A stretch of 29,026 nucleotides of DNA from a virus (Duplodnaviria > Caudoviricetes): IMG/VR virus record IMGVR_UViG_3300032013_000005, positions 1 through 29,026 of that record; one strand, written 5' to 3'. The notes under the pieces are model-generated. The model was not told the origin of the DNA, did not search any database, and saw only the letters and a program-made list of their open reading frames with translations. The position numbers and the translations under genes are program-made. Shown here piece after piece: positions 2,241 through 22,773 of this stretch (the first letter of the stretch is position 1; every line of letters begins with the position of its first letter).

Positions 2241-2243
2241 ATG

Positions 2244-2435
2244 TCAATCTTTCAACACACGTTGACGTGGCCGTGGTGGTTGTGTATACCGATGGACTTT
2301 TCCACCATGTACCACAATCTCTTCATGATCGTATGGATAGTACGGATGAATACCATGCTTTCTCAGTAGCTCATCGTACTCAAGAATACACTGCCGCATT
2401 TCAATATCGTCGATTATCACTCTACGCTGATACAC
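2244..2435 (-). CDS. Hypothetical protein, 63 aa
   Basis: GAGG RBS before a GTG start; fills the gap in the operon. Confidence 0.65.
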   Translation of the reverse strand: MYQRRVIIDDIEMRQCILEYDELLRKHGIHPYYPYDHEEIVVHGGKVHRYTQPPRPRQRVLKD

Positions 2436-2470
2436 ACGATACCTCAGCAGCTCACGAGCAGCTCACGCTG

Positions 2471-3001
2471 CTAAAAAGGCAACTGCATAGCATGGCCACT
2501 ATTGCCAAGCTGACCAAGGAAACCACTCATATCAAAGAATTGATCCGTTGATGCAAGCTTCGCTACCGACTGACCTTCAGGTGTACTCACAATGACGTAA
2601 CTCTTAAAGGTGCTGTTGAACAAGTTCGCATCAGCACGTTGCGCAAGTTGATCCTGGTGTTGGAGATCGCCAGCGATCTCAGCAGGGACAATTACGATAC
2701 CAGGACCATAGCTGACGGATTCCTGACCATCTATACGGATCAACTTCCCCTCCGGGCTATACACAGCGTTCCCGCCTGATGTCATCGTTTGCTTGGTATG
2801 GAGCGCAATGCGCACCATGCTCTTACCAACACGCTGTGCGGCTGAAGCCGCTTTCTCTGGCATACCATATGGACGCTCAAACAGTGCAGACTGCGGTACA
2901 GCAGGCTCTTCAGGCTTCGCTATACCGCTGATCTCAACCTGTAAGCCGTGTTGTTCAAACACGGCGTAGGCTTCCTCAAGGGATATCTTTTTCCTAGGCA
3001 T
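2471..3001 (-). CDS. Hypothetical protein directly downstream of the MCP, 176 aa
   Basis: Co-oriented ORF with AGAAAG RBS; no recognisable motif. Confidence 0.8.
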   Translation of the reverse strand: MPRKKISLEEAYAVFEQHGLQVEISGIAKPEEPAVPQSALFERPYGMPEKAASAAQRVGKSMVRIALHTKQTMTSGGNAVYSPEGKLIRIDGQESVSYGPGIVIVPAEIAGDLQHQDQLAQRADANLFNSTFKSYVIVSTPEGQSVAKLASTDQFFDMSGFLGQLGNSGHAMQLPF

Positions 3002-3027
3002 AGCGCTTCGCGCTTTCTATGACAGTA

Positions 3028-4320: not shown

Positions 4321-4340
4321 CTTTTACTAGCCTTTCGTTA

Positions 4341-4447
4341 GATTGACGGCTTCGCCGTATCAATCTTCACCGATTAGATTGAGCAGTATGGTGTGTGCAT
4401 ACTGCCCACATTGTACACACGTTTAGTAGACAGGCGGCTCAAGCCGC
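4341..4447 (-). promoter_or_regulatory. Structured leader between scaffold and MCP genes (three hairpins)
   Basis: GATTG-ACGGC-TTC-GCCGT-AT-CAATC (4341-4365), GCAGTATG-N7-CATACTGC (4383-4405), GCGGCTCAAGCCGC (4434-4447). Confidence 0.6.
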
Positions 4448-4461
4448 AAGATCAAGCTGTA

Positions 4462-5031
4462 TCAGAACGTGATGCCTTCTAAGGCTTTCTCCATCTCCTC
4501 TAGCGGCAAGTTCTCAAAGTTCCCCCACTTACTATCATTCTTCGCTTTATTCATCATAGCCGCACCAAAGTCTGTACTCATCTCAGCACGTTCAACTTGC
4601 GCTTTCTTCCGACTGTTCTGCTTCTCCACGAACTTCTCTGGATCAGCACGGAATTCACGACCGAGTATGGCATCATAGAGATCTTTGCGAGGGATACCAC
4701 GGCCCTGTTGGATTAACTCACCAAACAGCCGTTCAATGGACTCACTGTGTTCCAGTGCATCAGGATTATCTCGGTAGAATCGGACCTCATCTTGGACAGC
4801 ACTGGTGTTCGTAATCGCTTGATTGAGTGCTGGTCCCACAACCGGTCCAATGGTTTCCGCAATCAAACGATGCTGTTGTTGCTGCTGCTGATCTATCTGC
4901 TGCGGAGCAGGTTGCTGCTGTGGCGTGAATTCTTTCATGTAGCTCTGGACTTGATCACGAATGAATGAGGTCACTTTCTCAAAGTCAGCAGCTTCATTGC
5001 TGGCTTCGCCAGTATTCGGTTCTTCAGCCAT
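4462..5031 (-). CDS. Capsid scaffolding protein
   Basis: Acidic, helical, Q-rich 189-aa protein between portal and MCP. It ends in the typical scaffold helix 'FENLPLEEMEKAL'. Confidence 0.8.
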   Translation of the reverse strand: MAEEPNTGEASNEAADFEKVTSFIRDQVQSYMKEFTPQQQPAPQQIDQQQQQQHRLIAETIGPVVGPALNQAITNTSAVQDEVRFYRDNPDALEHSESIERLFGELIQQGRGIPRKDLYDAILGREFRADPEKFVEKQNSRKKAQVERAEMSTDFGAAMMNKAKNDSKWGNFENLPLEEMEKALEGITF

Positions 5032-5034
5032 GAT

Positions 5035-6927
5035 TTACCTCTGCTGTACAAAGCCTGACTGTGGCTGTGGAAGTTGATATGCTAAGCCTGGCATTGGGCT
5101 TTGTGCTTGCGCACCATTCTGTTGACCATTCGTAGAAGTCCCTGGTGCACCAGACGAACCTGACGCTGTTGGTGGTGCCGCACCATTGCCAGCGCCAGGA
5201 GCACCAGGCATAGGCTGTCCGCCTGGCACACCAGGTTGCTGTAGCGCCATTGGCGCTTGTTCCATCTGCACGAGGATATTACTCAAGCCACGCTCACCAA
5301 GCGTATGCCGCCAGATGTACTGAATCATCTCGGCGAGGTTCACCGCGTAGCCCTGTCCAGCAAGCTGTTGTTGGACCTGTGGATTTGCCAGCATATTCAG
5401 CATGATCAAACTGCGTTGTGCGCGTTGTGAGTCATCCTGGAATTGCTGCGCACCGATCCATTCAAACTCATAATCTCCGAGGATATCGGATCGCTTCAAG
5501 ATGTTACTTTGGACACCAGCACCATAGAAGGCCATACCTCCAGGTATCCGCATCAACTGCTCATCTGGGATGAAGCTGCTCACCTTATAGATGTCTGAGA
5601 GTGCTTGTGTGAGCACTTCCTGCTCAAGGATTTCTGCCACATCGGACACATCAGCCATACCGAGATTGACTAAGCTTTGCACGGCTGAGCCAGCTCTCGG
5701 CATGTTTCGTCCTGGTTGGCCTTCAGCAATGGTGCCTGCACCACCCATGCTTTGCATCAGCCCAGTCACGATCTGAAATGCTCTCAACTGATTGACAGAA
5801 GTTATGGGTGGTTGAATAAATTGCATCGCTTGCTTCGGATCATCATTGAACATCCACAAGGCTCTACCTTTAGCCTTCCAACTGTCATGGCGACGGTCGG
5901 CTTGTGCAGCAACAAAGCCTTGTTCCCAATCAACGCTACTCATGAACTGATTAAACAAGTCATTCTGAACATTGTCGAGTTCATTGATGTCTTCAGACTG
6001 TGCAGGAGTATACAGCTCACCAGGGAGTGGACGATGGACGGTCATACGGTAGAGTGGTTCATCATAGGAGCTTTTGAAGAAACCAACAATACGAGGTCCA
6101 CGCTTGAGATTCCAGGCGATGTAGACTTGGTATTGCACATCTTCTCGGCGTATCCACAGCTCAGTCAAGCTCACAAACGCTTCAGTCGTTGCTGCAAGCT
6201 CAGCATCAATGCGCCGTGAGCGTGTCTCGATATCTTGCGCAACATCAGCAGTGGGGTCTGTAATGCCCTGGTATGCCAAACGCTCTACCAGATGATACGG
6301 CCAATCTGGCTTCGTCAAGTCTGATATCTCAAGATCATCCACAAGGCCCTTACGCGCATAGGTCTTGTATTTCTCGTATGAGCACAGATGATCTTCAAAG
6401 ACTTTCTCTGCCTCTTCAACAACAGGGGAAGTTTCTGGGTAGATGTAAAACGAGAAGGGATCAATCGCACGCCATGAAGGCCACACGTTACCGTTCAACA
6501 CCTGGATGGAGGTCTTCAGCACGGAAAAGCTATACAGCATCAAGCAACGGACGAGCTGTGATACTATTGGTCGAGTTCTGATACGCTTACGGAGAACGTA
6601 ATTCATCCATTGATCGACGTTGCTGACTTTCTCAGGCGGAACATCGGCTGCTGGAGCCACTTCAAACCACCGCACAGACGGTGTGAGCATTTTCACGGCA
6701 CGAGTCGCAAAGCGTTCTTGAGTACGTCTCGCTGCTGGAATATCGTAGAGGTCTGCAACAGACTTACCTTCAGGAATCACTCTGGCCAGATGATTGCCAA
6801 ACCACTGACGGCGGGATGCTAACATACGCTGTTCAACGAGGAGCCGACGCTGACGAATCGCAATGATTTCATCGCAATACGCTCGGCTGTAGGCTTGCTT
6901 CAGTTCACTTTCTTGCTGAATCGGCAT
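5035..6927 (-). CDS. Portal protein (podovirus type)
   Basis: 630 aa, between TerL and scaffold. Portal-like motifs 'WRAIDPFSFYIYP' and 'HRPLPGELY', plus a disordered P/Q/G-rich C-terminal tail. Confidence 0.88.
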   Translation of the reverse strand: MPIQQESELKQAYSRAYCDEIIAIRQRRLLVEQRMLASRRQWFGNHLARVIPEGKSVADLYDIPAARRTQERFATRAVKMLTPSVRWFEVAPAADVPPEKVSNVDQWMNYVLRKRIRTRPIVSQLVRCLMLYSFSVLKTSIQVLNGNVWPSWRAIDPFSFYIYPETSPVVEEAEKVFEDHLCSYEKYKTYARKGLVDDLEISDLTKPDWPYHLVERLAYQGITDPTADVAQDIETRSRRIDAELAATTEAFVSLTELWIRREDVQYQVYIAWNLKRGPRIVGFFKSSYDEPLYRMTVHRPLPGELYTPAQSEDINELDNVQNDLFNQFMSSVDWEQGFVAAQADRRHDSWKAKGRALWMFNDDPKQAMQFIQPPITSVNQLRAFQIVTGLMQSMGGAGTIAEGQPGRNMPRAGSAVQSLVNLGMADVSDVAEILEQEVLTQALSDIYKVSSFIPDEQLMRIPGGMAFYGAGVQSNILKRSDILGDYEFEWIGAQQFQDDSQRAQRSLIMLNMLANPQVQQQLAGQGYAVNLAEMIQYIWRHTLGERGLSNILVQMEQAPMALQQPGVPGGQPMPGAPGAGNGAAPPTASGSSGAPGTSTNGQQNGAQAQSPMPGLAYQLPQPQSGFVQQR

Positions 6928-6944
6928 GGAGCTGCATAACCCAC

Positions 6945-7011
6945 ATTATAGATAAAATCTATACGACATGTTATCACAGTGATAATATCTATAAGCTCAG
7001 TCAAAAGTCAA
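6945..7011 (-). promoter_or_regulatory. AT-rich promoter/operator region upstream of the portal gene
   Basis: TTGACT(7011-7006)-N18-TATTAT(6987-6982) and a TATAAT at 6950-6945. Palindromes TATAGAT-AAA-ATCTATA (6947-6963) and TTATCAC-A-GTGATAA (6971-6985). Confidence 0.55.
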
Positions 7012-7054
7012 TAGGCAGCTTCACCGAGAAAAGGTGAGAAGACTGCTGATCCAC

Positions 7055-7175
7055 AAGTACTTGACAATCGCTCCACATCCCGTGCCTTCGGCGAGCCGTC
7101 CGCTGAGCCATAGGAATGGCGCAGCGGACGCTCACCAAATGCTACGGGATGTCTCGCTATGATTGTCAAGTACTT
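7055..7175 (-). promoter_or_regulatory. Long fold-back element E1 (ssoA/Frpo-like single-strand promoter or primer origin)
   Basis: Perfect 15-bp terminal IR AAGTACTTGACAATC, with further stems ACATCCCG, CGTCCGCTG and GCCAT. Carries TTGACA-N19-TAGCAT on the minus strand and is homologous to 11175-11308. Confidence 0.7.
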
Positions 7176-7182
7176 CTTCCCA

Positions 7183-7278
7183 CTACAGCGCATCAGAACA
7201 CTTCTGGCTACAAATCGGCTCAACACCTTTAGGTGCGATAAATTCACGACCACACACAATACAAATATACTGAATCAC
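7183..7278 (-). CDS. 31-aa zinc-ribbon microprotein (not in the ORF track)
   Basis: GGAG RBS plus GTG start; MIQYICIVCGREFIAPKGVEPICSQKCSDAL*, with CxxC...CxxxC. Confidence 0.6.
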   Translation of the reverse strand: MIQYICIVCGREFIAPKGVEPICSQKCSDAL

Positions 7279-7283
7279 AGTGG

Positions 7284-7517
7284 TTACTCCACATCGAGCA
7301 TATGGAGCACTGCACCACCCCAACCACGGGTGAGCCCATAAGGACCACGAAATATCTCTCTCCGAATATCAGCAAGAGCGCCATGCAGGGTTTCGAGTGT
7401 CTCTGAGTCAGTATAGCCAAGTTGTACGAGGAGTGCTGGAAGCTTTTCATAATCAGTTGTTGCAAACATACTATCTGGGCCGTCTTCATCGTAGTCATAG
7501 AGGAGGTAGATGCGCAT
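7284..7517 (-). CDS. Hypothetical protein, 77 aa
   Basis: GGAG RBS; starts 2 nt after the TerL stop. Confidence 0.75.
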   Translation of the reverse strand: MRIYLLYDYDEDGPDSMFATTDYEKLPALLVQLGYTDSETLETLHGALADIRREIFRGPYGLTRGWGGAVLHMLDVE

Positions 7518-7519
7518 AG

Positions 7520-9133
7520 TTACTCCATTGCAAGGCGTACTAACTCATCATCTGGGAGTTCCATCCACCCATAGGGCTTTTGTTGCTGTTGAAACACCAA
7601 CGCTGCATGCTGCTCTTTGGCCTGCTGTAAGCGCAGCATCTTCGCATCTTCATACGGCACACCCCACTTGATATAGTTCTCAGCGGTGTAGCGCCAACTG
7701 CACGCAATATCGGCAAAGTACATGTCTTCAGTAGGCTTTTTGACTTGACTCTTTTCAGGATAGTGATAACCGCCTTCTAATGCACCAATGAGAATAGGGC
7801 ACTTCTCACTGATTAAGATCATCTCCATGCCGCACTGACATGCTGCTTTCGGCTTGAGCAGTCCTCGCATGTATTGCAGTGATGGCTCTAACTCTAAGAA
7901 ACGCCACTTGAAGGGGAGATGGTATTCATGCATGAGAATCTTCATATCACTGCGACCATCACGACTGGAGGAGCTGTTGCGCCATCCGGCTCTATCACCA
8001 CAATTGAGGACAAGCTTTGCCTCTTTGTAGAGCGCATCCATATGGGGTTTGTGGTGGAGCTTGTACAAATCGTGTACGGTTAAGTTGAAGGCTTCGCCGA
8101 CTTCAGATAAGGTGAGCAGATGATTACTGTTGAACTTGCACTTGTAGATATGGTGATAGGTAATGCCTGGATGTCTGAAGCCGAAGTCCCAACCGCATAT
8201 CAGCGGGAGGAGTGGATTAAACTTGAGGCTTGCCACATGCTTGCGATGTTCAAACTGCGGGAACACTGGTATGCCCTTGTATGCAGCAATAGACTCGCCA
8301 AACACCACACGACGAATGGTTCCATCGCTCCTATTCATCTGTCGTTGTGCACCAATGAGTGACTTGGCGTAGCCACCACCAGTAAATGGGTTGTCGAGTG
8401 TTTCACCCTTCAAAAACTCGACGGTATCTTGCCCAATCGTGCGGAGTCCAGGTGTACTGCCGAAGAGCTTATGGAGAAAGTGACCGTATGGTGGCGGATT
8501 CGATGAGAGCATACCGTGTAATGCGCCATGTGGTCGTGTTGTCTCGTCATATGTACGCGGATCAAACCGTACATGTGGTAAGCGTAGACGAGAGAGTAAG
8601 CCAGCCGTAACATTCGTGCCGACAAAGAATTCCTCCACGCACTCCAACGCATCATCCACCCAGAAGAAACCATGATCAGCACCTAAGCCTTGTCTCCAGT
8701 TCTTTCCGTGTATAGCATGTAGCTCTGAGCCGTTACTGAAGATGATTTCGGTGAAGTTGCCCTTTTCTTTCACGGCGTAAGCAGGTGGTGAGATGAGTTC
8801 ACGCTCTATCAGCCGTTGAATGCATTCCATCACTTTCCGCCAGCTTGTATCGAACAGCTCACCAAAGTTATGCCGAACCACCACACCACGGTTCTTCGGA
8901 ATGCTTAAGCTGAGATAGACACATTTCGCAGCAAAGCCTTCTGACTTGCCTCCACCAACACCGCCCTGCATGAAGAGATACATCGCTGTCGAGTTGAAGA
9001 TGTTGTGCTGTTGCGGCAAGATGTGTTGATGTGGTTGCTGTTTCTGCACACCGAAGAACTTCTCGCACTGGTCCTTGGGAAGCATGCAATCAGGTAAGAA
9101 GTTGTGCAGTGCTGGTACAGGATAGCTACGCAT
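7520..9133 (-). CDS. terL: Terminase large subunit
   Basis: Q motif 'LPQQ', Walker A 'GGVGGGKS', Walker B 'FFWVDD', coupling motif 'SSNP', 'TLDNPF', and RNase H-like nuclease motif 'GWDFGFRHP'. Confidence 0.95.
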   Translation of the reverse strand: MRSYPVPALHNFLPDCMLPKDQCEKFFGVQKQQPHQHILPQQHNIFNSTAMYLFMQGGVGGGKSEGFAAKCVYLSLSIPKNRGVVVRHNFGELFDTSWRKVMECIQRLIERELISPPAYAVKEKGNFTEIIFSNGSELHAIHGKNWRQGLGADHGFFWVDDALECVEEFFVGTNVTAGLLSRLRLPHVRFDPRTYDETTRPHGALHGMLSSNPPPYGHFLHKLFGSTPGLRTIGQDTVEFLKGETLDNPFTGGGYAKSLIGAQRQMNRSDGTIRRVVFGESIAAYKGIPVFPQFEHRKHVASLKFNPLLPLICGWDFGFRHPGITYHHIYKCKFNSNHLLTLSEVGEAFNLTVHDLYKLHHKPHMDALYKEAKLVLNCGDRAGWRNSSSSRDGRSDMKILMHEYHLPFKWRFLELEPSLQYMRGLLKPKAACQCGMEMILISEKCPILIGALEGGYHYPEKSQVKKPTEDMYFADIACSWRYTAENYIKWGVPYEDAKMLRLQQAKEQHAALVFQQQQKPYGWMELPDDELVRLAME

Positions 9134-11824: not shown

Positions 11825-12065
11825 GATCGTCTACTGCTGTACCAGATGCCAGCAGCTTCCCTGCCGATGCATTCGTGATAGTAGTCGCGTCACCTTTCAG
11901 ATTCTTCAGTGCAGTGCACCACACTGCAACTACACCACCTATACGGCTACAGACCTCCAGAATCATCATCTCGCTGCGCATGAGCGCTCGTACATCTTCA
12001 TTGCGGATCAATCTGTCGTGGAACATACCAATGGAGGTGCGAAGCACGATGGAACACATGTTTAG
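11811..12065 (+). CDS. C2H2 zinc-finger protein, 84 aa
   Basis: GAGG RBS plus TTG start. C-x4-C-x12-H-x4-H (CSAPHCNYTTYTATDLQNHHLAAH) and an N-terminal CCxxC-x4-CxC. Confidence 0.65.
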   Translation: MDPSKIVYCCTRCQQLPCRCIRDSSRVTFQILQCSAPHCNYTTYTATDLQNHHLAAHERSYIFIADQSVVEHTNGGAKHDGTHV

Positions 12066-12447
12066 ATCAGCTATTGCTGACGATCCTGATGCTATTCCAC
12101 TTGACGTACCGAATCAAGATTCTGGCGAAGCCGATGCAGCAAGTGTTGATATGGTCTTAGTGTTGTCGAGTGAACTGGTCTGCCAGATAGCCGAGAAGTA
12201 CTTCAACAGCACTATGCTGAAGAAGAAAGTGAAAGTGCTCGATCTCCAAGCAACCGCAGCAGGCTTAGTGCAGTTTAGTGTTGCTTTTACTCTTGATCCA
12301 GTAGGCGTCACTCCAACACGACTTGAGCTTATTCCTTCAAGCATTCCTCCTGCGGCTTCAGCCGCTCAGCAGCCACGAACAGCAAATGGCAAGTTCAGGA
12401 AGTCTTCAACAGCGGCTTTAGCCGCAAAGGTGAAAGATCATGAGTGA
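12049..12447 (+). CDS. Hypothetical protein, ~132 aa
   Basis: Start moved to ATG 12049 (GGAGG RBS); the ORF-track extension overlaps the C2H2 gene. Confidence 0.7.
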   Translation: MEHMFRSAIADDPDAIPLDVPNQDSGEADAASVDMVLVLSSELVCQIAEKYFNSTMLKKKVKVLDLQATAAGLVQFSVAFTLDPVGVTPTRLELIPSSIPPAASAAQQPRTANGKFRKSSTAALAAKVKDHE

Positions 12448-12874
12448 AACTCCGCGAAGTGGTAGTGGTAGTGGTGATACTGCGCGTAGCGCTGGTGATG
12501 AGATCACCACGAGTGAAGGTCCACGGAGAACAGCACCACGGACCAGTAGCACAGGTGTTGGTGGCGAAGTGACACAGAGCGAACGTGATGTTGCTGAGCA
12601 TGAACGCCAACGGACACAGCTACGTCAGAGTGGCGAAGCCAGTACAACAACATCAGAGACACCAGCCGTAGCGTCTGCACAGCAGGAACTCTTCAAAGCT
12701 GACTTCACGTCAATGCGTGAGCACATTAACGCATTGCGCAATCATGCCATGACTCTGCCCAACTCTGATGCACTCGCTGAGGTGCTGTTAGCGGTTGAAA
12801 GTGCCGAACTAGGCATTAGCCGTGCAGAGCGTTTAGTGCTCAATCTCCCTGATGAGAGCGCGGAGCGCCCATAA
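12440..12874 (+). CDS. Hypothetical protein with disordered N-half and helical C-half, 144 aa
   Basis: AAGGTG RBS; overlaps the previous stop; S/T/G/E-rich N-terminus. Confidence 0.75.
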   Translation: MSETPRSGSGSGDTARSAGDEITTSEGPRRTAPRTSSTGVGGEVTQSERDVAEHERQRTQLRQSGEASTTTSETPAVASAQQELFKADFTSMREHINALRNHAMTLPNSDALAEVLLAVESAELGISRAERLVLNLPDESAERP

Positions 12875-12883: not shown

Positions 12884-15481
12884 GTGCGAAAACATGAGAG
12901 ACGTGTGAAGCGCAGCCTTCCCTTTGCTGTTGTGAGCATGTTTATCCTCGCTATCGTACTGATTGCTGGGTTGAATGTGCTTATGTCGGTAACGCGCTAT
13001 ACGCCTGATCCATCTGAAGAGAAGCGTGAAGCGCAGGTCGATTTGAGTGCGCGAAGCGCCAGTGCGCAATCACAGCAGACCATTCAGCGCATCATGAATG
13101 ATGTGTGGGATAAGACCGGTAAGCGCATCATGACGACACCATGGGCTGGTGCGCAAGGCACAAGCCAAAGCGAAACGTTCATCTGGAATGATGTGTGGGA
13201 TCAAGCGAATCATCTCATCAGAACATCTGGCGGAGCTGGTCCGAGTGGTCCGAGTGGTCCAGTCAACTTTACTGACCTTATCGGTACAGCCAGTGATGCA
13301 CAGATTCCCAACTTGAACACGCTCAGTACTGGTCTTACCCCATCTCGATGCGTGCAGACTGATGCAGTTGGTCATCTGAGCGTAGCTTCTGATGCGTGTG
13401 GCACTGGTGGTGGAGGTGGTGGAGATAGCACACCTGAGAACGTGGTCAGTGCACAAATTGTGTGCGATGGCACGACTGATGTTGGGCCAGCGCTGCAAGC
13501 CCTCTTTGATAGTGTTCCTGTTGGGACACGCATTGCACTCCCTCCTGGTATTTGTTCGCTGAATCAAGCGCTGGTTATTAATCAGTCCGTAAGCCTGGAA
13601 GGCGCTGGTATGAATCAGACGACCTTACGGCAAACGGTCTCCAATGCTCGCGTACTCACTGTCCAGACGTATAGTGTCACTATAGAAGGACTAACCTTCA
13701 GCCATAGTGGTACACCCACTGCTGGTGGTGATGGTCTTGTGGTCCTTGGTCCAGGTGGTGTTCCGATCTTTGCTGTGACGATCATGAATACCATGGCAAC
13801 GCATAATTGGCGAGGATACGCCATAGGCCCTGTATCCTATGCACAGATGGCGCATGTCTGGGCTATGAATAATGATAGCCATGGGTTTGAATTCCTCTAC
13901 ACAGCGGCTGATGGTGGTGGTTCGCAGCAGTGGCATGTGCTCAATGCGCTCTCGCAACAGAACCTTGGTGCTGGCTATTATGGCAACAACACGCTTGCTG
14001 CGAATGGTATTGGTCCCTGGCTTACAGAATCAATCAGCTTTGCCAATAATGCTGGTGGCTTTGTCTTCGTCGGCTCATCCGGGCATATGATTAGTGCCGT
14101 TCGCTTGAATGCTATTGATGCGAGTACGGATAATGTGCATGGTGTCTATCTCGACACCTTTGGTGGTTCACACCAGCTTGTCATGCCCAGTGTTGAGAAT
14201 GTCGGGCTGAATGCTGGCATTCCTATAGGCTCTGCAGGAACGCTCTCTGTGGCGAGCAATACTGGTCATGGTATTGAGGTCACGGCTAACAACAACTACG
14301 GTGTCATGATCAATGGTGGGACCATCTGGAATAATAGCTGGAGTGGTATTGTTCTGAACGCACCATCCAGTCAGCTTATTGGTGGTCAGACAGTCGGCAA
14401 TGGCAAAGCACTTATTGCTGACCCGACAAAGCGTGCAGCTCTCTATATTGGTGGAAACAACACGTTAGTTGATGGTCATACCTTCCAGTTCATTGGCGAT
14501 GGCTCGACACAAGATTACATCACGCTTGCTGGTGGTGTGACCGGCACGGTTATCGGTGTCAATAGCTATGCCGCAGGTCTCGCAGCAGAAACGAGCACTC
14601 TTGCAGGTTTACCTGCTGGCTCAACCGATTTCGTTGGCACTGGTGGACCTGGCCAGGTGTTGAAGCAGCTCAGTGTTGGTGGTCCGGTCACAGTAGGCCC
14701 ACTCAGCTCTGGTGAGGTTGGTTTAGGCAATGTAGACAATACCTCAGACACCACGAAGAATAGCAATCCAGCGGTCCTCACCAACAAGCAGATTGTTGCA
14801 CGAATTCCAACGTGTACTGTGACTGGATCAGGTCCATTCATCATCACGCCTAATGCCGATACAACTGATGTCTGCGAATCGTATGCGATTACTGGAGCAC
14901 TCCAGATAGCCAACCCTACAGCAACAGGTTCCAACCCACGTCCACATCAACGGCTTGAATTCGCCCTGAAGGCGGCTACGCCACAAACAGTGACGTTTAC
15001 AGGTTCCCTCTATGACAACAGTTGTGGTCAACCACTGCCGACAAACTTAACAGGTGATGGCTCCACAACCGATCACTTCCTCTTCGCCTTCAACCCCAAC
15101 ACCAATAAGTTTTGTGCACTGGCAAGTTCACGAGCACCAGCAAAACGGCTCAACACCTTCACGAGTGCGGTTGCCAGCCCCACACTCACCTGTGTCAGTC
15201 CAACAACAGACCGCTGTCAACTCACCGCTACTGGCGCAACCGGAACGATAACCATAGCGAATCCAACGGGATTGCCAAATGATGGTGATATGATGATGAT
15301 TGCACTGCTGTGCAGCGCCGTGCATGCTGTAGCGTGGGATACGCAGTTTGTTGGCAGTCCCAATATTCCCTTACCAACCACAGCAGCGTGCCCAGCAGAT
15401 ACCGCAAAGTGGACCGTGTTTGGTGTGCAGTACAGTGCAAGTTTGGCTCCGCCAAAGTGGCAATTGTTAGGAGCGAATTAG
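12884..15481 (+). CDS. Membrane-anchored tail-fibre/tailspike-like protein with a pectin-lyase-like beta-helix, 865 aa
   Basis: Basic N-terminus plus TM helix (aa ~12-36); beta-helix cap 'DGTTDVGPALQALFD...IALPPG'; fibre motif 'VGLGNVDNTSD'; two tandem C-terminal domains ('TTD..IANPT..LPT..F.(F/Y)..K(F/W)') typical of phage fibre ends; 12 Cys. Confidence 0.8.
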   Translation: MRKHERRVKRSLPFAVVSMFILAIVLIAGLNVLMSVTRYTPDPSEEKREAQVDLSARSASAQSQQTIQRIMNDVWDKTGKRIMTTPWAGAQGTSQSETFIWNDVWDQANHLIRTSGGAGPSGPSGPVNFTDLIGTASDAQIPNLNTLSTGLTPSRCVQTDAVGHLSVASDACGTGGGGGGDSTPENVVSAQIVCDGTTDVGPALQALFDSVPVGTRIALPPGICSLNQALVINQSVSLEGAGMNQTTLRQTVSNARVLTVQTYSVTIEGLTFSHSGTPTAGGDGLVVLGPGGVPIFAVTIMNTMATHNWRGYAIGPVSYAQMAHVWAMNNDSHGFEFLYTAADGGGSQQWHVLNALSQQNLGAGYYGNNTLAANGIGPWLTESISFANNAGGFVFVGSSGHMISAVRLNAIDASTDNVHGVYLDTFGGSHQLVMPSVENVGLNAGIPIGSAGTLSVASNTGHGIEVTANNNYGVMINGGTIWNNSWSGIVLNAPSSQLIGGQTVGNGKALIADPTKRAALYIGGNNTLVDGHTFQFIGDGSTQDYITLAGGVTGTVIGVNSYAAGLAAETSTLAGLPAGSTDFVGTGGPGQVLKQLSVGGPVTVGPLSSGEVGLGNVDNTSDTTKNSNPAVLTNKQIVARIPTCTVTGSGPFIITPNADTTDVCESYAITGALQIANPTATGSNPRPHQRLEFALKAATPQTVTFTGSLYDNSCGQPLPTNLTGDGSTTDHFLFAFNPNTNKFCALASSRAPAKRLNTFTSAVASPTLTCVSPTTDRCQLTATGATGTITIANPTGLPNDGDMMMIALLCSAVHAVAWDTQFVGSPNIPLPTTAACPADTAKWTVFGVQYSASLAPPKWQLLGAN

Positions 15482-15482
15482 T

Positions 15483-16016
15483 ATGCTGAAATACTTCCTC
15501 TGTGTCATGATGGTTTTACTGTGCGTCAGCACTAGTGCATTTGCTGAGTGCACGTCAACTGAGCTGTTCAATGAGCTTGCGACTGATCCGGCTGTACCAC
15601 CACTTGGCTATGCCGCAGCGTATGGGAAGCCGATCACGACCAACAGTATCGGCAACGATCAAGCTGTCCTCGATATGATTAACCTGATCCGTCAAGGCAC
15701 AGCCTATCAGATTCAACGAGTGCTCATGCCAGCCTATGAGATCGCCGCGTTGATGAATCCTGCAGAGTTCAATGCGCTTACAGGCGGTAAGCAACAACAG
15801 CTTGTGTCCATCTTTGCAGCATTACAAGTTGATGTCTCTTCGCAGAACATGCGCGATATTCTCTTTAATGGACCCACCTCCATCTTTCCGAATCCTGGAG
15901 CTACTCGGACAGCCTTGATTGCTGCGGTGAAACGACAGGGAAGCCGTGCTGAAGTCGTGTGTGGGAGCAATCGCACTATGGCGCAAGTATCCCAAGCCAT
16001 TCGTGGCAGTCAATAA
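15483..16016 (+). CDS. Signal-peptide-bearing phage protein, 177 aa
   Basis: MLKYFLCVMMVLLCVSTSAFA|E signal. The 'ELATDP..LGY..DQAVLD..TRTAL..SRAE' pattern is one I recognise from fibre-associated phage proteins. Confidence 0.75.
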   Translation: MLKYFLCVMMVLLCVSTSAFAECTSTELFNELATDPAVPPLGYAAAYGKPITTNSIGNDQAVLDMINLIRQGTAYQIQRVLMPAYEIAALMNPAEFNALTGGKQQQLVSIFAALQVDVSSQNMRDILFNGPTSIFPNPGATRTALIAAVKRQGSRAEVVCGSNRTMAQVSQAIRGSQ

Positions 16017-16028
16017 GGAGGATCAGCT

Positions 16029-16556
16029 ATGAAACGGCTCACAACACTCTTCCTCCTTGGTGTTGCACTCGCAGTTGCTTTAGCTGCGCCAGCAGCTCAT
16101 GCGCTCACATTGCAAGAAAGCCTCGGCACAGCCACAACATTGCTCAATGCTGAACTGAACAGTATCGGTACGAACGTGTACACTGGCTTGTCGAGTGCCA
16201 CCTTCGATAATAGCCTTGCCGCAGCAGGCAATGGTGTCCTGCGCTGTCGTGTTGAACTCATTATCGTCTACACGACCGCACCAACAGCGAATACTGCATG
16301 GGTAGTGTGGCTGTTGCGTTCTGCTGATGGCACCAACTATGAGCCGACACCAACCTCCGCCATTGCTCCTGGCTCCGCACTGACGCTCAGCTTTCCTGTC
16401 AACAGTGGCGCAACCACGACCCGAGGCATTATCGACATCGACTGCCCAGCAGGTAAGATGAAAGCCGTTGCGAAGAATGATGGGACTGGTCAAAGCTCTA
16501 ATGGTGGTGCAGTGAACTTCTTGAAGATTTGGCCGATCATCATTCAAGGGAACTAA
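16029..16556 (+). CDS. Signal-peptide-bearing beta-sandwich protein, 175 aa
   Basis: AAGGAGG RBS; MKRLTTLFLLGVALAVALAAPAAHA| signal; 'ELNS..DNS..APTA..S.DGTNY' pattern. Confidence 0.8.
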   Translation: MKRLTTLFLLGVALAVALAAPAAHALTLQESLGTATTLLNAELNSIGTNVYTGLSSATFDNSLAAAGNGVLRCRVELIIVYTTAPTANTAWVVWLLRSADGTNYEPTPTSAIAPGSALTLSFPVNSGATTTRGIIDIDCPAGKMKAVAKNDGTGQSSNGGAVNFLKIWPIIIQGN

Positions 16557-16560
16557 GTCA

Positions 16561-17376
16561 ATGCTGTTGCTGTTCTTACTCTTTCTCTTATTCCCGACGC
16601 TTGCGTTGGGACAAGCACCGCTCAGTGCGAATCTTCGGCAAGGTCTTGTTGGTCGATGGGTAGTATCGCCACTGACCAAGGGTGGACTGACCTGGTATCC
16701 CCAGGTTGGCCAGGACAAAGGCACACTCGTCAATGGTGTCAACGGCTATCAACCCACATTCCGCCCTGGTGGTGTTGGGGAGATGCGCTTTGATGGCACC
16801 AACGACCAAATTAATACAGGCACAACAGTGCTGTTGGCCAATCTGCCCGCTTTCACCATCTGTCTTTGGTTCCGCTCAGCTAGCACTGCTGCCCAACAGC
16901 TCTACACCGAGAACATCAGTGGATGGCCTGACCTGCATATCGTCATCAACTGGGGAGATCCAACCAAGATCTACTTTAATAACTATGGCAATACAGGACA
17001 GGTTGAATCGAGTGGCGTTCCTGCTTTTGCGCTTGATTCCAATGTCTGGCAACATGTGTGCGGTGTACAACGCAGTAAAAGCAGTGGTGAAATATACTCG
17101 AATGGCAAGCTTATTGGTGTGAGTACTGGCACCGTAGGCACCTCTACGCCATCAGCACGAGCCTTTGGCGCTTCACCTCAAGGCTCAAATCTCTTCAGTG
17201 GTGCTCTTGATGATGTCTGTACCTGGACACGAGCACTGAATGCTGCGGAAATCCAACAAGTGTATATTGAAAGCCAAAACAAGCCATCACAAGCATTTGC
17301 TCTCTACGATGCGCTCTTTCCAACTGTTGTTACCACACGGAGAGGTCTGCTCAACTACTTTACCACGCCAAAATGA
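16561..17376 (+). CDS. LamG/ConA-like lectin domain protein with signal peptide, 271 aa
   Basis: MLLLFLLFLLFPTLALG|Q signal; LamG motifs 'GLVGRW', 'FDGTND', 'FTICLWF', 'WQHVCGV', 'IYSNG' and 'FSGALDDVCTWTRALNAAEIQQ'. Confidence 0.9.
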   Translation: MLLLFLLFLLFPTLALGQAPLSANLRQGLVGRWVVSPLTKGGLTWYPQVGQDKGTLVNGVNGYQPTFRPGGVGEMRFDGTNDQINTGTTVLLANLPAFTICLWFRSASTAAQQLYTENISGWPDLHIVINWGDPTKIYFNNYGNTGQVESSGVPAFALDSNVWQHVCGVQRSKSSGEIYSNGKLIGVSTGTVGTSTPSARAFGASPQGSNLFSGALDDVCTWTRALNAAEIQQVYIESQNKPSQAFALYDALFPTVVTTRRGLLNYFTTPK

Positions 17377-17391
17377 GGTGCGCTCCGCGCT

Positions 17392-20300
17392 ATGATTCTC
17401 TCACTGTTCCTCATCTTCTTTGTGCTGCTTGCTGGACCAGTTATCGCTGTTGAACGCTTTGCACGTCCAGGTGCGAGTAGTGGCTTACCCTGTCCAGAAG
17501 GCTCTCCATGTTCACTGAGCACCTGTGTCAATGCAACCAATGCGGGTGACATCTGCACACTCCTTGATAATGGCTCACCCTATACCGATCGTATTGGTCC
17601 TGGTATGGGGCTCAAATCTGGAAGCAGTTGGAATCCTGGTGGTTTCGTGACCATCCGAGGCAAGCCAGGTCAACGCCCACGCTTCACCAACTATGCTATT
17701 GACATCAACACGAACAGTGGTGCTTATCAATTTATCCATTTCGAGAACTTCATTGTCGATGGTGCAGGGATCTTTATTGGTGGGGAAGCTGCGCATGATA
17801 TGCGTGTGTACAACATTGAAGTGAAGAATAATATAGGCGCTAGCGGCATCTCAGCCTATCCAAATCCTAACACTGGTCGAGGCTGTGAACGTGTTGAGTA
17901 TGCCTTTGTTGATGTGCACGATAATGGCTCTGATGGTCGTGATCATGGTGTGTACAACTGCTGCAAAGACAACATTATCCGTGACAGTAAATTCTATGGC
18001 AATGCTGGGTATGGTCTCCAAATCTATTGGACAGGTATTATTGATGCGATTAATCGTGGCGATGCCCCGCCTGGTACTGACTATCGCTGCAACAGTGGCA
18101 CAAAGATCTACAATAATTATATCTATAACAATGATAACTGGGGTATTACCATCGACTATGGCGACAACGTGCAATTCTTTAACAATGTCGTCGTTGGGAG
18201 TCAAGCTGGTGGTGGCATGCAGACCATCCATCACGTCGATAATCTCCAAATCTACAACAACACCATCTATGGCAACGTTGGCTCAGGCATTGTCTTTGGC
18301 GATATTGGTCAAGTGACCAACGCGAAGATTCGCAATAACATCTTTGCCAACAATAGTGACCCAGTCAATAGCGCTGGATCAAGTGGCGTCAGCTTTTCCA
18401 ACAATCTCTGCTGGCAAAATGGTGGCTTTGGCAACACTGGTATTGGCTGTACGCATAGCGGTGATCCCAAGTTTACCGCACCCGGCAATAGCGCTGGATC
18501 GGATTTTAGCTTACAAGACACAAGTGCAGCGATCAACATTGGTGCGGATCTCAGACCAACTGTGGCGACTGACAAAATTGGCACAGCACGACCACAGCCG
18601 TCTGGTGGCATGTTTGATGTTGGTGCGTATGAGCGCCTTGGTACTGGTGGTGGTCCTGGTCCTGGTCCTGATCCATGTCCACCGAACTGTCCTGTGACAT
18701 GTCCTCCCGATTGTCCTGTGACATGTCCTCCTGATTGTCCTGTTGAACCACCTGTTGTGAAAGCGTTCCCCAGCGCTGAAGGCTTCGGTTCCACTGCTGT
18801 TGGTGGACGTGGTTCACCCTCACAACCAGGTCGAACTATCGAAGTGACGAACTTACTCGATGACAACAATCCTGGCAGTCTGCGCTATTGCGTTCTCCAG
18901 ACTGGTCCTCGTACATGCGTCTTCCGTACTGGTGGCACCATTGCCCTGAACAGTCCCCTGAACACTACCGCTGTTAACAGCTTCCTGACCATTGCTGGTC
19001 AAACAGCACCAGGTGGTGGCATCCAAACCAAGAACTGGTTCATACAGTTCGGCTATGGTACCCATGATGTTATCGTTCGGCACCTGAAAGTCCGTCCAGG
19101 AACCGATCACAACCCCACCGACATCAACAATCAATGTGGTGGCATCATACTCTATCGCGGTGAAGGCACCGTCCATCATATCATCCTTGATCATGTCAGT
19201 ATTGAATGGAGTTGCGATGACAGCATCAACCTGAGCGGACTTATCCAAGACACCACTATTCAATGGTCGATTATTGGTGAAGGCATGAACAATGGCGATT
19301 ATTGCAGTCCTACTAGTGATCAATGCGCCAACAGCAAAGGTCTGCTCATTGGCGACTTCGTTGATCAAACCGTCAGCGTGCATCACAACATGTTCCTGAC
19401 CTCTGAATCACGTAATCCGGCTGTTGCTGGTGCAAACCCACTCGACTTCCGCAACAATCTTATCTACAACTGGTACGCCTGTTATGCAGGTTCAAGCTTT
19501 GGCTACCAACCTGGTGGCTTCACCAGAGTCAACTACATCGGTAACAAGACCATTGTCGGGCCTAGCTCTGGCAGCCTGACTGATTGTCGTCTTGGCGATA
19601 TTGATTACGAAGCGATTGATATGTACGCCATCGACAACAGTACTCCGTGGTGTGAAAGAGATGGTAATTGTACAACAGCGAGCTTTGCGCAGATGGGCTT
19701 CATCGGTCCATCGAGATTAGGCAATCCTGAAGTGAATGAGTTGCAAGCTCGTGTAAGCACACCCTTCACCGTTCCTCCTGTTGTCACAACACCCGTTGCC
19801 AACCTTGAGTCACTGCTTGTCAGCAAAGCTGGTGCAACAGTTCCATTCCGTGATGCACTTGATACACGTCTCATCAATGAGATGACATCACGTACAGGTA
19901 CGAAAGGTCGTGGTGGTGAGCCATGGCCAGTCCTCGCTGCTGGGACTCCACCGGCTGACGCAGACCATGATGGTATGCCGGATACATGGGAACAGCAGCA
20001 CAGCCTTAACATGAACGAGCCCGGTGATGCCGCTCAAATTGCTGCTAATGGCTACAGCAATCTTGAGAACTACTTGAACACGCTTGCAGGGGACACTGTT
20101 AATCTCGATCCACCAACCGGCAATAGGGTTAGTCCTGGTGTGTTCTATGTTGCGCTCAACGGTGTTGATCCACCAACACGTGATTGTACAGCAGCACTGA
20201 ATAACATCGACGCACCACTCCTCAGTGTGAATGCAGGTCGAAGCTGTCTCACTGTTGCAGGCGATACACTCTATCTCCGTCAAGGCAGTTACACCACAGG

Positions 20301-21297
20301 TATCAGCACTTCGACACAGCCTATCACGAACGGGAGCAACTGGACCAACGCAACCACGATTGGTTCCTACGGAACTGAAACAGCAACACTTGTCCTCGCT
20401 TCATCATCAGATGTCGCCCTGTACTTTAATGGGAGCAATTCCTACATCATATTAGACCGACTCATTATCGACTGTCATAATCAAACCAATAGCAATGGTC
20501 TTGCCACAACAGCACCGACGCATCATATTCGTTTCCAGAATGGTGAAATCAAGACCTGTCATTTTGAACCAATCTACATCGAGAACAGCGATGGCATTGA
20601 GATTCTCAACTCAACTATTCATGGCAGCATTGTCGCTTCCTGCATCAATCTTACTGGTGGTAGTGACGGCACCATTATCAGAGGTAACACCATCTACGGC
20701 TGTGCCGAAGCTGGTATCGAAGCGGCTTCACCGAATACGAACACATCCATTCGAGGTAATGTCATTCATGACGTTGGGTCAGGAGCTACGCTCGCAGGCA
20801 TAGCATTAACAGGCGCTACCACTCCCGAAATCATCAACAATGTCAGCTATGCCAACTATCGTGGTGGTCAACTCTCGACTGGCACCTCCAACGCTAAAGT
20901 CTACAACAACACTTTCAACAACAACAGTCAACAGGGATTGTTTATTGATACTGGCGTCAATGACACATCTGCTACGAACAACATCGTTGCCGATAATGGT
21001 GCTGGTCAAATTGTAAACAGTGGTTCTGGCACCATACAACTGACGAATCTTACTGTTGCACCACCCTTTGACCCGGCTTTCCCGAATAAGTTTCATCTTA
21101 CTGCTGCATCAACCACTGCTATTGATATGGGCACAGCTTTAGCTGCTGATGTTCCAATCGACTACGAAGGTGTGCAACGTCCACAAGGTTCAGGCTTCGA
21201 TATTGGTGCAAGTGAATTTGTTGGCACTGTTATCCCACCGCCACCTGGCGCTATTCAAGGACCATACTGGAGAGGACAAGGCTTTCTATGGCGATAA
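17392..21297 (+). CDS. Exported trimodular beta-helix protein with a central PL1-type pectate lyase, 1301 aa
   Basis: Signal MILSLFLIFFVLLAGPVIA|V. N- and C-terminal beta-helices end in 'ARPQ..FDVGAYE' and 'QRPQGSGFDIGASEF'. The central PL1 has 'AFPSAEGFG..GGRG', 'PGSLR', 'TIAGQTAPG', 'ILDHVS', 'SRNP' and 'DADHDGMPDTWE'. Confidence 0.9.
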   Translation: MILSLFLIFFVLLAGPVIAVERFARPGASSGLPCPEGSPCSLSTCVNATNAGDICTLLDNGSPYTDRIGPGMGLKSGSSWNPGGFVTIRGKPGQRPRFTNYAIDINTNSGAYQFIHFENFIVDGAGIFIGGEAAHDMRVYNIEVKNNIGASGISAYPNPNTGRGCERVEYAFVDVHDNGSDGRDHGVYNCCKDNIIRDSKFYGNAGYGLQIYWTGIIDAINRGDAPPGTDYRCNSGTKIYNNYIYNNDNWGITIDYGDNVQFFNNVVVGSQAGGGMQTIHHVDNLQIYNNTIYGNVGSGIVFGDIGQVTNAKIRNNIFANNSDPVNSAGSSGVSFSNNLCWQNGGFGNTGIGCTHSGDPKFTAPGNSAGSDFSLQDTSAAINIGADLRPTVATDKIGTARPQPSGGMFDVGAYERLGTGGGPGPGPDPCPPNCPVTCPPDCPVTCPPDCPVEPPVVKAFPSAEGFGSTAVGGRGSPSQPGRTIEVTNLLDDNNPGSLRYCVLQTGPRTCVFRTGGTIALNSPLNTTAVNSFLTIAGQTAPGGGIQTKNWFIQFGYGTHDVIVRHLKVRPGTDHNPTDINNQCGGIILYRGEGTVHHIILDHVSIEWSCDDSINLSGLIQDTTIQWSIIGEGMNNGDYCSPTSDQCANSKGLLIGDFVDQTVSVHHNMFLTSESRNPAVAGANPLDFRNNLIYNWYACYAGSSFGYQPGGFTRVNYIGNKTIVGPSSGSLTDCRLGDIDYEAIDMYAIDNSTPWCERDGNCTTASFAQMGFIGPSRLGNPEVNELQARVSTPFTVPPVVTTPVANLESLLVSKAGATVPFRDALDTRLINEMTSRTGTKGRGGEPWPVLAAGTPPADADHDGMPDTWEQQHSLNMNEPGDAAQIAANGYSNLENYLNTLAGDTVNLDPPTGNRVSPGVFYVALNGVDPPTRDCTAALNNIDAPLLSVNAGRSCLTVAGDTLYLRQGSYTTGISTSTQPITNGSNWTNATTIGSYGTETATLVLASSSDVALYFNGSNSYIILDRLIIDCHNQTNSNGLATTAPTHHIRFQNGEIKTCHFEPIYIENSDGIEILNSTIHGSIVASCINLTGGSDGTIIRGNTIYGCAEAGIEAASPNTNTSIRGNVIHDVGSGATLAGIALTGATTPEIINNVSYANYRGGQLSTGTSNAKVYNNTFNNNSQQGLFIDTGVNDTSATNNIVADNGAGQIVNSGSGTIQLTNLTVAPPFDPAFPNKFHLTAASTTAIDMGTALAADVPIDYEGVQRPQGSGFDIGASEFVGTVIPPPPGAIQGPYWRGQGFLWR
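18652..18743 (+). repeat. Tandem repeats encoding a Gly-Pro/Cys-Pro linker
   Basis: (GGTCCT)x3, then the 24-bp unit TGTCCTGTGACATGTCCTCCYGAT x2 plus a partial copy (18688-18743), encoding CPPNCPVTCPPDCPVTCPPDCPV. Confidence 0.9.
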
Positions 21298-21764
21298 TGC
21301 GACTGCTGATCATAGCTGGACTTGCTGTCTTACTGTATTACATAGCTGATGCGAAAGATGGGGTAGTGAATCTTGACCAACACCTGACTAGTCGCACCTG
21401 CATGGTACAAATCATTCCACCAAAAGGCACAGAAGTGCTTGCTCCCAAACATGAAACTGTCGATGTTTGTGCGAATGAGTATGGTGCAGACTGGACAATT
21501 AAGACGGTGAGCTGTTACGCCAATGCTGGCACACCAACTGTGCGAGTGAATCTTACTGGATCGCAGACGTCTATTACAGAACGAGTTATTCCGTGCGGTG
21601 AACGCACATGGCTCTCAGGCTTAGTGAAAGGTACACCAATTGTGCATACGTTCTCTGAGCTTGGCTCGACCTGCGCTGTGCAACCATGCTCACTAGAAGC
21701 GCGTATTGATGCTGTTAAAGGTACGAGCAATTGGGTAGTATTACGCATTACTGGACAACTGTAA
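21297..21764 (+). CDS. Signal-peptide/TM-bearing Cys-rich beta protein, ~155 aa
   Basis: TAATG coupling suggests start 21297 (alternative 21288); MRLLIIAGLAVLLYYIADA|K; 6 Cys. Confidence 0.75.
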   Translation: MRLLIIAGLAVLLYYIADAKDGVVNLDQHLTSRTCMVQIIPPKGTEVLAPKHETVDVCANEYGADWTIKTVSCYANAGTPTVRVNLTGSQTSITERVIPCGERTWLSGLVKGTPIVHTFSELGSTCAVQPCSLEARIDAVKGTSNWVVLRITGQL

Positions 21765-21767
21765 GCT

Positions 21768-22187
21768 ATGGCTGATGATGTTGAGGTCTCTGGCCCTAAT
21801 GGTATGAATCTCAAGGTGGGCAATAAGGCCCTCGGCATTACCGGGCCTATTGTTATTCCTGTCTTGTGCATTGCTCTTGTGGCTGGTATTGGCTGGATTC
21901 GTTCCAATGATCTGAAGGATGCACTTGCACAAACAAACACACATCTGCAAGCACTGTATCAGCGTCAAGAAACGATACGGCTTGATCTCTCCGCACAGAC
22001 GAAGGAAATTGTACAGGCTCTCCAACAGAATCGAGACATCACTGGAAGCAGACTCGCTGAACAGAATGTCCTCCTACAGGAACAATCCGCCGACATGCGC
22101 AAGCAACACGCCATCATCATCTTCAATCAGCGGCATGAGCCAGTCGAGCATCTCATGCTGGACCTCGACCTCCCACCACAGAAATAG
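21768..22187 (+). CDS. Single-TM coiled-coil membrane protein (holin-like candidate), 139 aa
   Basis: TM 'IVIPVLCIALVAGIGWI' followed by a Q/L heptad-rich region; last gene of the operon. Confidence 0.6.
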   Translation: MADDVEVSGPNGMNLKVGNKALGITGPIVIPVLCIALVAGIGWIRSNDLKDALAQTNTHLQALYQRQETIRLDLSAQTKEIVQALQQNRDITGSRLAEQNVLLQEQSADMRKQHAIIIFNQRHEPVEHLMLDLDLPPQK

Positions 22188-22685: not shown

Positions 22686-22701
22686 ATGCACCTCCTAACT
22701 T

Positions 22702-22710
22702 AGTATAGCA
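22702..22710 (-). promoter_or_regulatory. Extended -10 promoter for the HNH gene
   Basis: TGcTATACT just upstream of the AGGAGG RBS. Confidence 0.45.
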
Positions 22711-22746
22711 TATGGGGGAAATTTTGGTATAAAAATGTGTGGCTAC

Positions 22747-22773
22747 GGGGGTGCAAACGGGGGTGGGAGGGGG
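22747..22773 (+). other. Four G-tracts (G-quadruplex-capable; possible packaging/terminus-associated motif)
   Basis: GGGGG-tgcaaac-GGGGG-t-GGG-a-GGGGG next to GGGGGAAATTTT, in the non-coding gap between the HNH and helicase genes. Confidence 0.5.

Follow-up and report, generated by a model that had tools for sequence, protein, structure and literature searches.

We analysed a 29,026-nucleotide stretch of a tailed-phage genome (Duplodnaviria; Caudoviricetes; IMG/VR record IMGVR_UViG_3300032013_000005), referred to here as the window, which holds a cassette of seven genes at positions 12884..22187 whose products all begin with a hydrophobic segment. The seven open reading frames (ORFs) lie on the + strand and are tightly coupled, with intergenic gaps of −10 to 15 nt; an ORF check confirmed the coordinates and strand of the initial annotation, which a model had made from the sequence alone. 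The first gene (12884..15481) encodes an 865-amino acid (aa) fibre/spike protein with 12 Cys. It is followed by a triad comprising a 177-aa helical protein (15483..16016; predicted signal 1–21; Cys23 and Cys160), a 175-aa jelly-roll β-sandwich that is TNF/C1q/lectin-like (16029..16556; signal 1–25; Cys73 and Cys139), and a 271-aa LamG lectin-like protein (16561..17376; signal 1–17; 3 Cys). The cassette ends with a 1301-aa multi-β-helix protein (17392..21297; signal 1–19; 32 Cys), a 158-aa protein without a Pfam or PHROG family match (21288..21764; signal 1–22; 6 Cys), and a 139-aa single-pass membrane protein with a likely coiled coil (21768..22187; transmembrane residues 21–44). The mature Cys counts, in gene order 12, 2, 2, 3, 32, 6, and 0, agree with those reported initially.

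Signals were called with a crude rule, an uncharged hydrophobic 11-mer starting within the first 23 residues. Six of the seven cassette genes passed this rule, compared with 3/45 other genes of the phage genome and 1/79 internal windows of the cassette proteins (Fisher p = 2.7e-5). Over residues 1–40, the hydropathy of 11-residue stretches peaked at 2.85–3.35 in all seven proteins, and just two small membrane proteins among the 30 other window genes scored matched these values. Hydropathy thus confirmed the N-terminal hydrophobic segments initially reported on seven consecutive genes, of which six are signal-like and the 139-aa product is a membrane protein. The five proposed cleavage motifs were all present, giving predicted sites at AFA↓E (21), AHA↓L (25), ALG↓Q (17), VIA↓V (19), and ADA↓K (22). 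The Sec/signal peptidase I pattern, in which small residues at −3 and −1 come after a hydrophobic h-region, is clear in these five cases and ambiguous in the 865-aa protein. The latter had been described as a signal-anchor, and the basic n-region and hydrophobic segment are indeed there, but it may instead be cleaved at one of the weak sites at 28, 29, or 35. As a caveat, the signals of the 271- and 1301-aa proteins lack a basic n-region. No lipobox, twin-arginine (Tat) motif, or cell-wall anchor was seen in the seven proteins. The suspicion that the true starts lie downstream of the hydrophobic segments was not borne out, each cassette start being the earliest in its frame behind a tightly coupled stop.

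We take the signals as real because of three homologue comparisons, made with the 865-, 175-, and 177-aa families; across homologues, the signal sequences diverge freely, whereas the n-h-c pattern is retained. Among 13 homologues of the 865-aa protein, 11 start with signal-like segments of unrelated sequence, and 10 of these 11 have an even number of Cys; of the remaining two, one is a fragment and the other begins at the body. For the 175-aa family, 208 relatives were found at E 0.001, of which 150 were listed, and the 134 with a length of 120–200 aa were aligned with the query, yielding 33 signal-bearing, 99 signal-less, and 3 unclear rows. The signal-less homologues place Met1 at query position 24 (median, n = 99), adjoining the predicted cut after residue 25. 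Both Cys73 and Cys139 are present in 24/33 signal-bearing versus 2/99 signal-less rows, and an even Cys count of at least 2 occurs in 31/33 versus 14/99. Other signal-bearing groups of this family have alternative Cys pairs, at 77/122 (3 rows) and 75/167 (4 rows). A quick tree, for which Cys were masked, shows six or more changes of the signal.

The 177-aa alignment, composed of the query, 26 of 30 hits (three near-duplicates and one fragment were excluded), and two relatives, gave a similar picture. Both Cys occur in 18/20 signal-bearing rows, the other two having neither, versus 0/9 signal-less rows, and here too the signal-less forms start at the predicted cleavage site. Across ten relatives of the window phage, the Cys count is even in 19/22 signal-bearing proteins versus 113/269 signal-less ORFs. 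The co-gain of signal and Cys that the initial annotation had proposed to look for in homologues is therefore well supported, although the independent events are few: signal-less forms start at the cut and mostly lack the Cys pair. Together, these comparisons give good support to export of the six cassette proteins by the host Sec pathway and suggest that disulfide bonds in them are likely.

The 865-aa protein has a basic n-region, a hydrophobic segment at 11–30, a spacer that ends in AxA↓Q at 63, two tandem repeats of ∼30 aa at 64–118 behind the signal, a tailspike-type body at ∼180–570, and a tip at 600–865 that is rich in Cys and contains a VGLGNVDNT motif, which we take to be a fibre motif. 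Residues 603–683 match phrog_3030. The protein has no Pfam match of its own and no PDB sequence match, and a direct scan of viral_contigs found nothing. We regard its body as tailspike-type because it is 45% identical to a 710-aa protein at another viral locus (L195) that matches PF12708 and tail-spike PHROGs. The tandem repeat is common to seven sequences and was seen only in the family of the window phage, to which the carriers G005 and G009 belong; it is a candidate docking module. Residues 49–122 of the homologue P0002 gave a weak tail-fibre match (E 0.016), and no known N-terminal virion-anchor domain was matched on the cassette proteins in Pfam or PHROG.

We also observed that the AxA↓Q motif is kept, at least 30 residues behind the hydrophobic segment, in the 865-aa fibre (window 12884–13075) and in its homologues in P0002 and G005. 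Other 865-aa homologues appear to be cut at this position. The motif may be a remnant, or it may serve to release an anchored fibre with a delay.

The 177-aa model is helical (predicted local distance difference test, pLDDT, 91.6) with no clear fold match (best Z 4.0), and the Atlas clusters of this family are 94–100% viral. The 175-aa model (pLDDT 94) is a jelly roll with Cys73 and Cys139 at the ends of two core strands. Its fold matches (Z 9.2–7.7) include XepA, PNGase F, the TNF family, carbohydrate-binding modules, and the Bd2133 fibre tip, and none stands apart: XepA comes top (Z 9.2, root-mean-square deviation (rmsd) 4.6, 115 aligned) with an equal score for PNGase F, a TNF-family chain comes within 1 of it, and Bd2133 gives Z 7.7 (rmsd 3.9, 112 aligned). 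In a search for cultured relatives, no match to the 175-aa protein was found among 50,697 phage records. The LamG and β-helix domains named initially were confirmed. The 271-aa protein matches PF13385 (E 3e-21) and phrog_8510, a virion structural protein (E 1.4e-8), and has signal-less homologues in the relatives G008 and G010. The 1301-aa protein matches the β-helix family PF13229 (E 4e-29) and PF05048, and its residues 453–717 match VexL (6fi2, E 1.3e-6), presumably a lyase; the 1301-aa protein is itself likely polysaccharide-binding or a lyase. It starts with a β-helix cap and has no recognisable virion anchor, and it has signal-less homologues in G008, G010, and G003. The fibre and tailspike-type assignments of the initial annotation thus hold directly for the 1301-aa β-helix, whereas the 865-aa body is placed via its 45% homologue. 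A Pfam search of the cassette detected no S74 domain. The 139-aa protein is a candidate lysis helper or membrane anchor; a similar gene, 27% in alignment, ends the L195 cassette.

A Pro/Cys linker in the 1301-aa protein (window 18676–18740; residues 429–449) holds five Cys at four-residue spacing between the first β-helix and the lyase-like domain, and the odd count may reflect pairing between chains.

The 177-, 175-aa, and LamG proteins form a conserved and widespread phage triad. We surveyed 80 viral loci, fetched with a pattern derived mostly from signal-less members, of which 4 had no ORF call and 4 were duplicates. At 71 of the 72 distinct loci that remained, the 175-aa homologue is signal-less; the 177-aa partner is adjacent at 22 loci and the LamG partner at 14, none with a signal. 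PHROG matches placed head, connector, or tail genes near the triad in 10/15 hand-picked loci, often with the triad between terminase/portal and capsid. The nozzle and adaptor genes flank the signal-less triad in G008 and G010, with a signal-less homologue of the 1301-aa protein further along.

As an observation in its own right, the signal-less helical, jelly-roll, and LamG triad (L115–L194) recurs as an unannotated module amid unrelated head types, and it may be a head appendage. Small signal-bearing proteins with even Cys counts lie between scaffold and capsid in G008 (31291–31638) and G010 (9772–10110) and are possible exported head decorations.

A scan with signal-bearing 177-aa sequences returned five loci, of which three were examined. 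The triad is entirely signal-less at L199, and L195 and L197 contain fibre, 177, 175, and LamG genes in the order of the window, with signals. L195 belongs to G012, a T7-like podovirus, and lies directly behind the gene for a signal-less 288-aa gp17-type anchor whose tail-fibre PHROG match is confined to residues 7–120. L197 belongs to G014, a complete 141.6-kb lambda-like phage, and lies directly behind the genes for the tape measure, J, and an S74 fibre without a signal. The fibres of G012 and G014 have a body or tip in common with the 865-aa fibre and a different N-terminal start, beginning with domains other than the tandem repeat. Within the family of the window phage, the nozzle gene of G009 is closely followed by that of a signal-bearing fibre of 826 aa. 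The complete relative G001 has a signal-bearing 378-aa protein behind the nozzle and a likewise signal-bearing 670-aa spike with 12 Cys in the slot that a short stub protein, described below, takes in the window phage.

A second block of ∼10 signal-bearing or membrane genes was seen in G014 at 30029–50054 (L204–L205), a long way from the virion genes of that phage.

The window belongs to a soil podovirus and is extended by the sequences L001, L112, and L113; together with L113 1343–16067 it closes a circle of 43,751 bases (source contig, 44,247 bases). The podovirus type is indicated by the terminase, major capsid, nozzle, and adaptor, the last weakly, with no tape measure. The signal-less head and packaging core occupies 1..9133 on the − strand. 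It comprises the terminase (7520–9133; TerL phrog_979), a portal assigned by size and position only (5035–6927), a scaffold assigned by position (4462–5031), the major capsid protein (3028–4320; phrog_1357, E 3e-24), and the first likely ejection protein (1–1428). The core strand runs on through L001, L112, and L113 with genes for a 511-aa nozzle, a short 84–101-aa protein, a 253-aa adaptor, a 137-aa protein, and a 176-aa stub. The nozzle profile matches gp16 of Vibrio phage VP1 (8zkk, E 3e-10) and PDB entry 9nwi (E 0.0013), and the adaptor matches VP1 gp12 weakly (E 0.095). The core genes are all signal-less, and the 1 of 69 core homologues in the ten relatives that passes the rule is a mis-called terminase start. 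The first 60 residues of the signal-less 176-aa protein are common to proteins of 170–738 aa in 7/10 relatives, including the 738-aa spike of G009. Because these residues recur in larger spike and fibre proteins, we regard the 176-aa protein as a short fibre-like stub; its C-terminal domain may form a separate tip. Cultured relatives reach a capsid identity of 35% at most.

The cassette's + strand unit is headed by two signal-less genes of 132 and 144 aa (12049..12874), the first of which has homologues in G001, G002, and G003. RNA-library contigs from four soil runs cover the head genes and the cassette and span 11416–12865, including the 132- and 144-aa genes, although strand and level are not given by contigs. 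The replication arm (22,200–29,026) yielded one contig in the four runs, a weak hint against DNA carry-over. A promoter scan found 23 sites versus 14.1 ± 3.0 in shuffles, with candidates at 11185 and 11390, and is not diagnostic.

Several further features of the genome were observed. The short gene behind the nozzle (L112 1302–1553, −) encodes 49–121 aa in the window phage, G001, G002, G004, G005, and G009, and the gene in this position encodes 317–503 aa in G008 and G010, the relatives with the signal-less triad. The major capsid protein has an inserted β-rich segment at ∼240–345 with a weak Ig-like match (PF19081, E 0.0066). Small membrane proteins are encoded at 9423–9584 (−), a DUF3309 protein (E 8e-9), and at 25970–26134 (−); they are possible holin or host-derived genes. 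No endolysin was matched in Pfam or PHROG among the scanned ORFs of the closed genome, although absence from these libraries shows little, and a 162-aa HExxH protein before the nozzle (L001 14911–15399) is a candidate. A family A DNA polymerase is split over two genes at L113 10709–13400 (−), the first fused to a uracil-DNA-glycosylase-like domain; relatives hold gene pairs of similar size at this position. A Deltaproteobacteria metagenome-assembled genome, the sole terminase match in genome_contigs (24%), was rejected as a host lead: it lacks the 177-aa family, and the 175-aa family occurs in 0/401 genomes of the phylum.

On balance, we favour the interpretation that the cassette encodes receptor-binding appendages that are exported by Sec, carry disulfide bonds, and are added to completed virions during lysis. 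Assembly of the head and of the tail core would take place in the cytoplasm. The six cassette proteins would meanwhile be exported by Sec, be stripped of their signals, and remain in the periplasm, folded and with disulfides introduced by the host. Once lysis mixes the two compartments, the 865-aa fibre would dock on the tail, with the triad and the β-helix protein as tips or side spikes. The likely dock is thus on the tail, at the nozzle, the adaptor, or the short cytoplasmic stub, engaged via the tandem repeat of the 865-aa protein, as in K1-5 and KP34 but across a membrane; the anchorless 1301-aa β-helix would perhaps be loosely bound or free. Docking on the 176-aa stub's C-terminal domain was considered and is weakened by G009, which has the repeat-bearing fibre without that domain. 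In this scheme, we infer that the host is a diderm, that the signals are cleaved and the disulfides form, and that docking takes place when the cell lyses. The identity of the cassette as a fibre locus is supported by gene order in three phage types. In ordinary fibres, the docking domains vary with phage type and the bodies are shared. We prefer attachment to the virion mainly because the N-termini of the cassette fibres differ by phage type, while body or tip is shared.

A number of findings weigh against docking on the virion. The window phage retains the signal-less 176-aa fibre-like protein and the short gene behind the nozzle, which could alone serve adsorption, and G012 and G014 retain signal-less fibre genes. 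The 865-aa N-terminus is possibly an uncleaved anchor, and both the 1301-aa protein and the 670-aa protein of G001 start with a β-helix cap and no anchor. The complete relative G002 encodes no signal-bearing protein of at least 100 aa, so that export is dispensable in this family, and G014 has many signal-bearing genes outside its virion region. The sole exception in the 72-locus survey, L186, combines a signal-bearing 175-aa homologue with signal-less neighbours. An independent-contrast test of signal against Cys found three pairs on strong branches, two of them defined after inspection, and its sign test was not significant. The protein that best matches the 175-aa model in fold, XepA, comes from a prophage and is reported to be exported and absent from particles (PMC6834076). 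The initial proposal that the whole appendage module is exported holds for the six signal-like proteins, but signal-less tail parts (84–101 and 176 aa) occupy the usual slots, and the 139-aa product is a membrane protein.

Some of these points fit a different explanation, which we regard as possible but doubtful, in which the proteins are exported and never become part of the virion. They would form a secreted or cell-surface complex of fibre parts that degrades or masks polysaccharide on the host surface, aids progeny escape, blocks superinfection, or alters adhesion. Consistent with such a complex are the cytoplasmic stub still in the normal fibre slot, the separate opposite-strand unit that the cassette forms in the window phage, the possibly membrane-anchored 865-aa protein together with the membrane protein that closes the unit, the anchorless 1301-aa β-helix, and the ability of G002 to manage without export. 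Precedents are XepA (PMC6834076), the MAT fibres of Bdellovibrio (PMC10769870), and NosD-like proteins of soil and sediment viruses, one of them with a signal peptide (PMC13452462). However, signal-less versions of the triad sit among virion genes, and the cassette lies directly behind tail genes in G012 and G014. Moreover, both fibre slots of G001 are taken by spikes with signals and the stub is absent there, the fibre N-termini track phage type over shared bodies, the 177-aa family is overwhelmingly viral, and neither a lipobox nor a cell-wall anchor was seen.

The initial annotation had also raised a membrane-cloaked capsid. Exit of the particle through, or wrapped in, host membrane bearing an anchored fibre, possibly without lysis, could draw on the possible signal-anchor of the 865-aa protein, the 139-aa membrane protein, and three small membrane genes in the genome. 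We consider this very unlikely. The terminase-portal-capsid-adaptor-nozzle core is signal-less and that of an ordinary tailed phage, with a nozzle like VP1 gp16, most fibre homologues have short signals of the cleavable type, signal-bearing proteins are found alongside lysozyme in G009 and M15 peptidase in G008, and T7-like and lambda-like phages carry the cassette as well. Least likely of all is that the hydrophobic N-termini are wrong starts or hydrophobic assembly segments of cytoplasmic proteins, a view to which the crude calling rule and the two signals without a basic n-region lend something, but which is countered by the coupled starts, the freely varying signals with their constant n-h-c pattern, the signal-less homologues that begin at the predicted cut, and the Cys pairs that track the signal.

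Returning to appendages that dock at lysis, a broader version of this interpretation has, in our judgement, about an even chance of being right: in several morphotypes of tailed phage with a common soil host, the receptor-binding apparatus would have moved to a second, periplasmic assembly line. Every gene of a module that was originally cytoplasmic would have acquired a Sec signal and new disulfides, repeatedly in evolution, and the particle would be armed after lysis on cytoplasmic stubs. The textbook view is that tailed-phage particles are built wholly in the cytoplasm, without disulfides from the host export machinery. We found no report of exported or disulfide-bonded tailed-phage appendages in a search of mostly non-subscription literature that covered titles and the first lines of abstracts. 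In the portions of two papers at hand, signals are mentioned solely on a membrane hydrolase and an endolysin (PMC13266070, PMC10820202). The cassette is a real feature for which nature supplies unusually clean controls of both export and the gain of Cys, and virion binding, which we infer, is the step that would make it a new assembly route. If so, the virion would be non-infectious until lysis and would rely in a new way on the Sec and Dsb functions of its host, and annotation would now be misfiling receptor-binding genes as host morons on account of their signal peptides. Were the proteins secreted or surface-bound instead, they would still constitute an undescribed secreted phage complex of fibre parts. 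The triad offers a direct test system, consisting of small, well-predicted proteins that exist with and without the signal and the Cys pair.

Membrane phages of the PRD1/PM2 type are tailless, with their own capsid type and virion membrane proteins. The window phage differs from them in that its capsid matches tailed-phage families, a nozzle is present, and the core lacks hydrophobic segments. It resembles the podovirus tails of VP1 (8zkk) and 9nwi in the nozzle and weakly in the adaptor, and departs from them in its signal-bearing fibres. Tailspikes and fibres of the T7 gp17/P22 type fold in the cytoplasm and are not known to carry an export signal. Their body type is shared by the 1301-aa protein and, via its homologue, by the 865-aa protein, but the signal-like N-termini differ, and a family-specific repeat stands in the place of the classical N-terminal anchor domain in the 865-aa protein. 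For P22, the tailspike is cytoplasmic and has no export signal according to a figure legend (bioRxiv 10.64898/2026.09.13.751334).

Exported phage and bacterial proteins provide other comparisons. XepA is exported during phage development, but it is a two-domain pentamer from a lysis cassette (PMC6834076), and the fold score that links it to the 175-aa protein is not set apart from those of unrelated jelly rolls. NosD-like β-helix proteins of sediment and soil viruses, with which the 1301-aa protein shares PF05048, are often near structural genes, and one has a signal peptide; they are described as single genes, the signal-bearing case being tied to host adhesion, with no exported multi-gene cassette, Cys co-gain, or post-export docking mentioned in the passages considered (PMC13452462). 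The MAT fibres of Bdellovibrio resemble the cassette proteins in being phage-fibre-like, with signal peptides and mosaic tips (PMC10769870), and the Bd2133 tip is among the fold matches of the 175-aa protein. They are, however, bacterial chromosomal surface adhesins with a conserved ∼130-aa domain behind the signal, whereas the cassette lies by virion genes in a closed phage genome.

A close parallel in arrangement is provided by the adapter and truncated-anchor systems of K1-5, SP6, and KP34, in which a short anchor in the fibre slot is combined with larger, anchorless receptor-binding proteins, whose genes in KP34 lie some distance away, with several others in between (PMC6872550). A short anchor of this kind is seen in G012, in its 288-aa protein. 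In the section of that account to which we refer, attachment of the second proteins is by means of a short peptide at the N-terminus, and export is not mentioned (PMC6872550), whereas the cassette proteins carry predicted Sec signals and added Cys.

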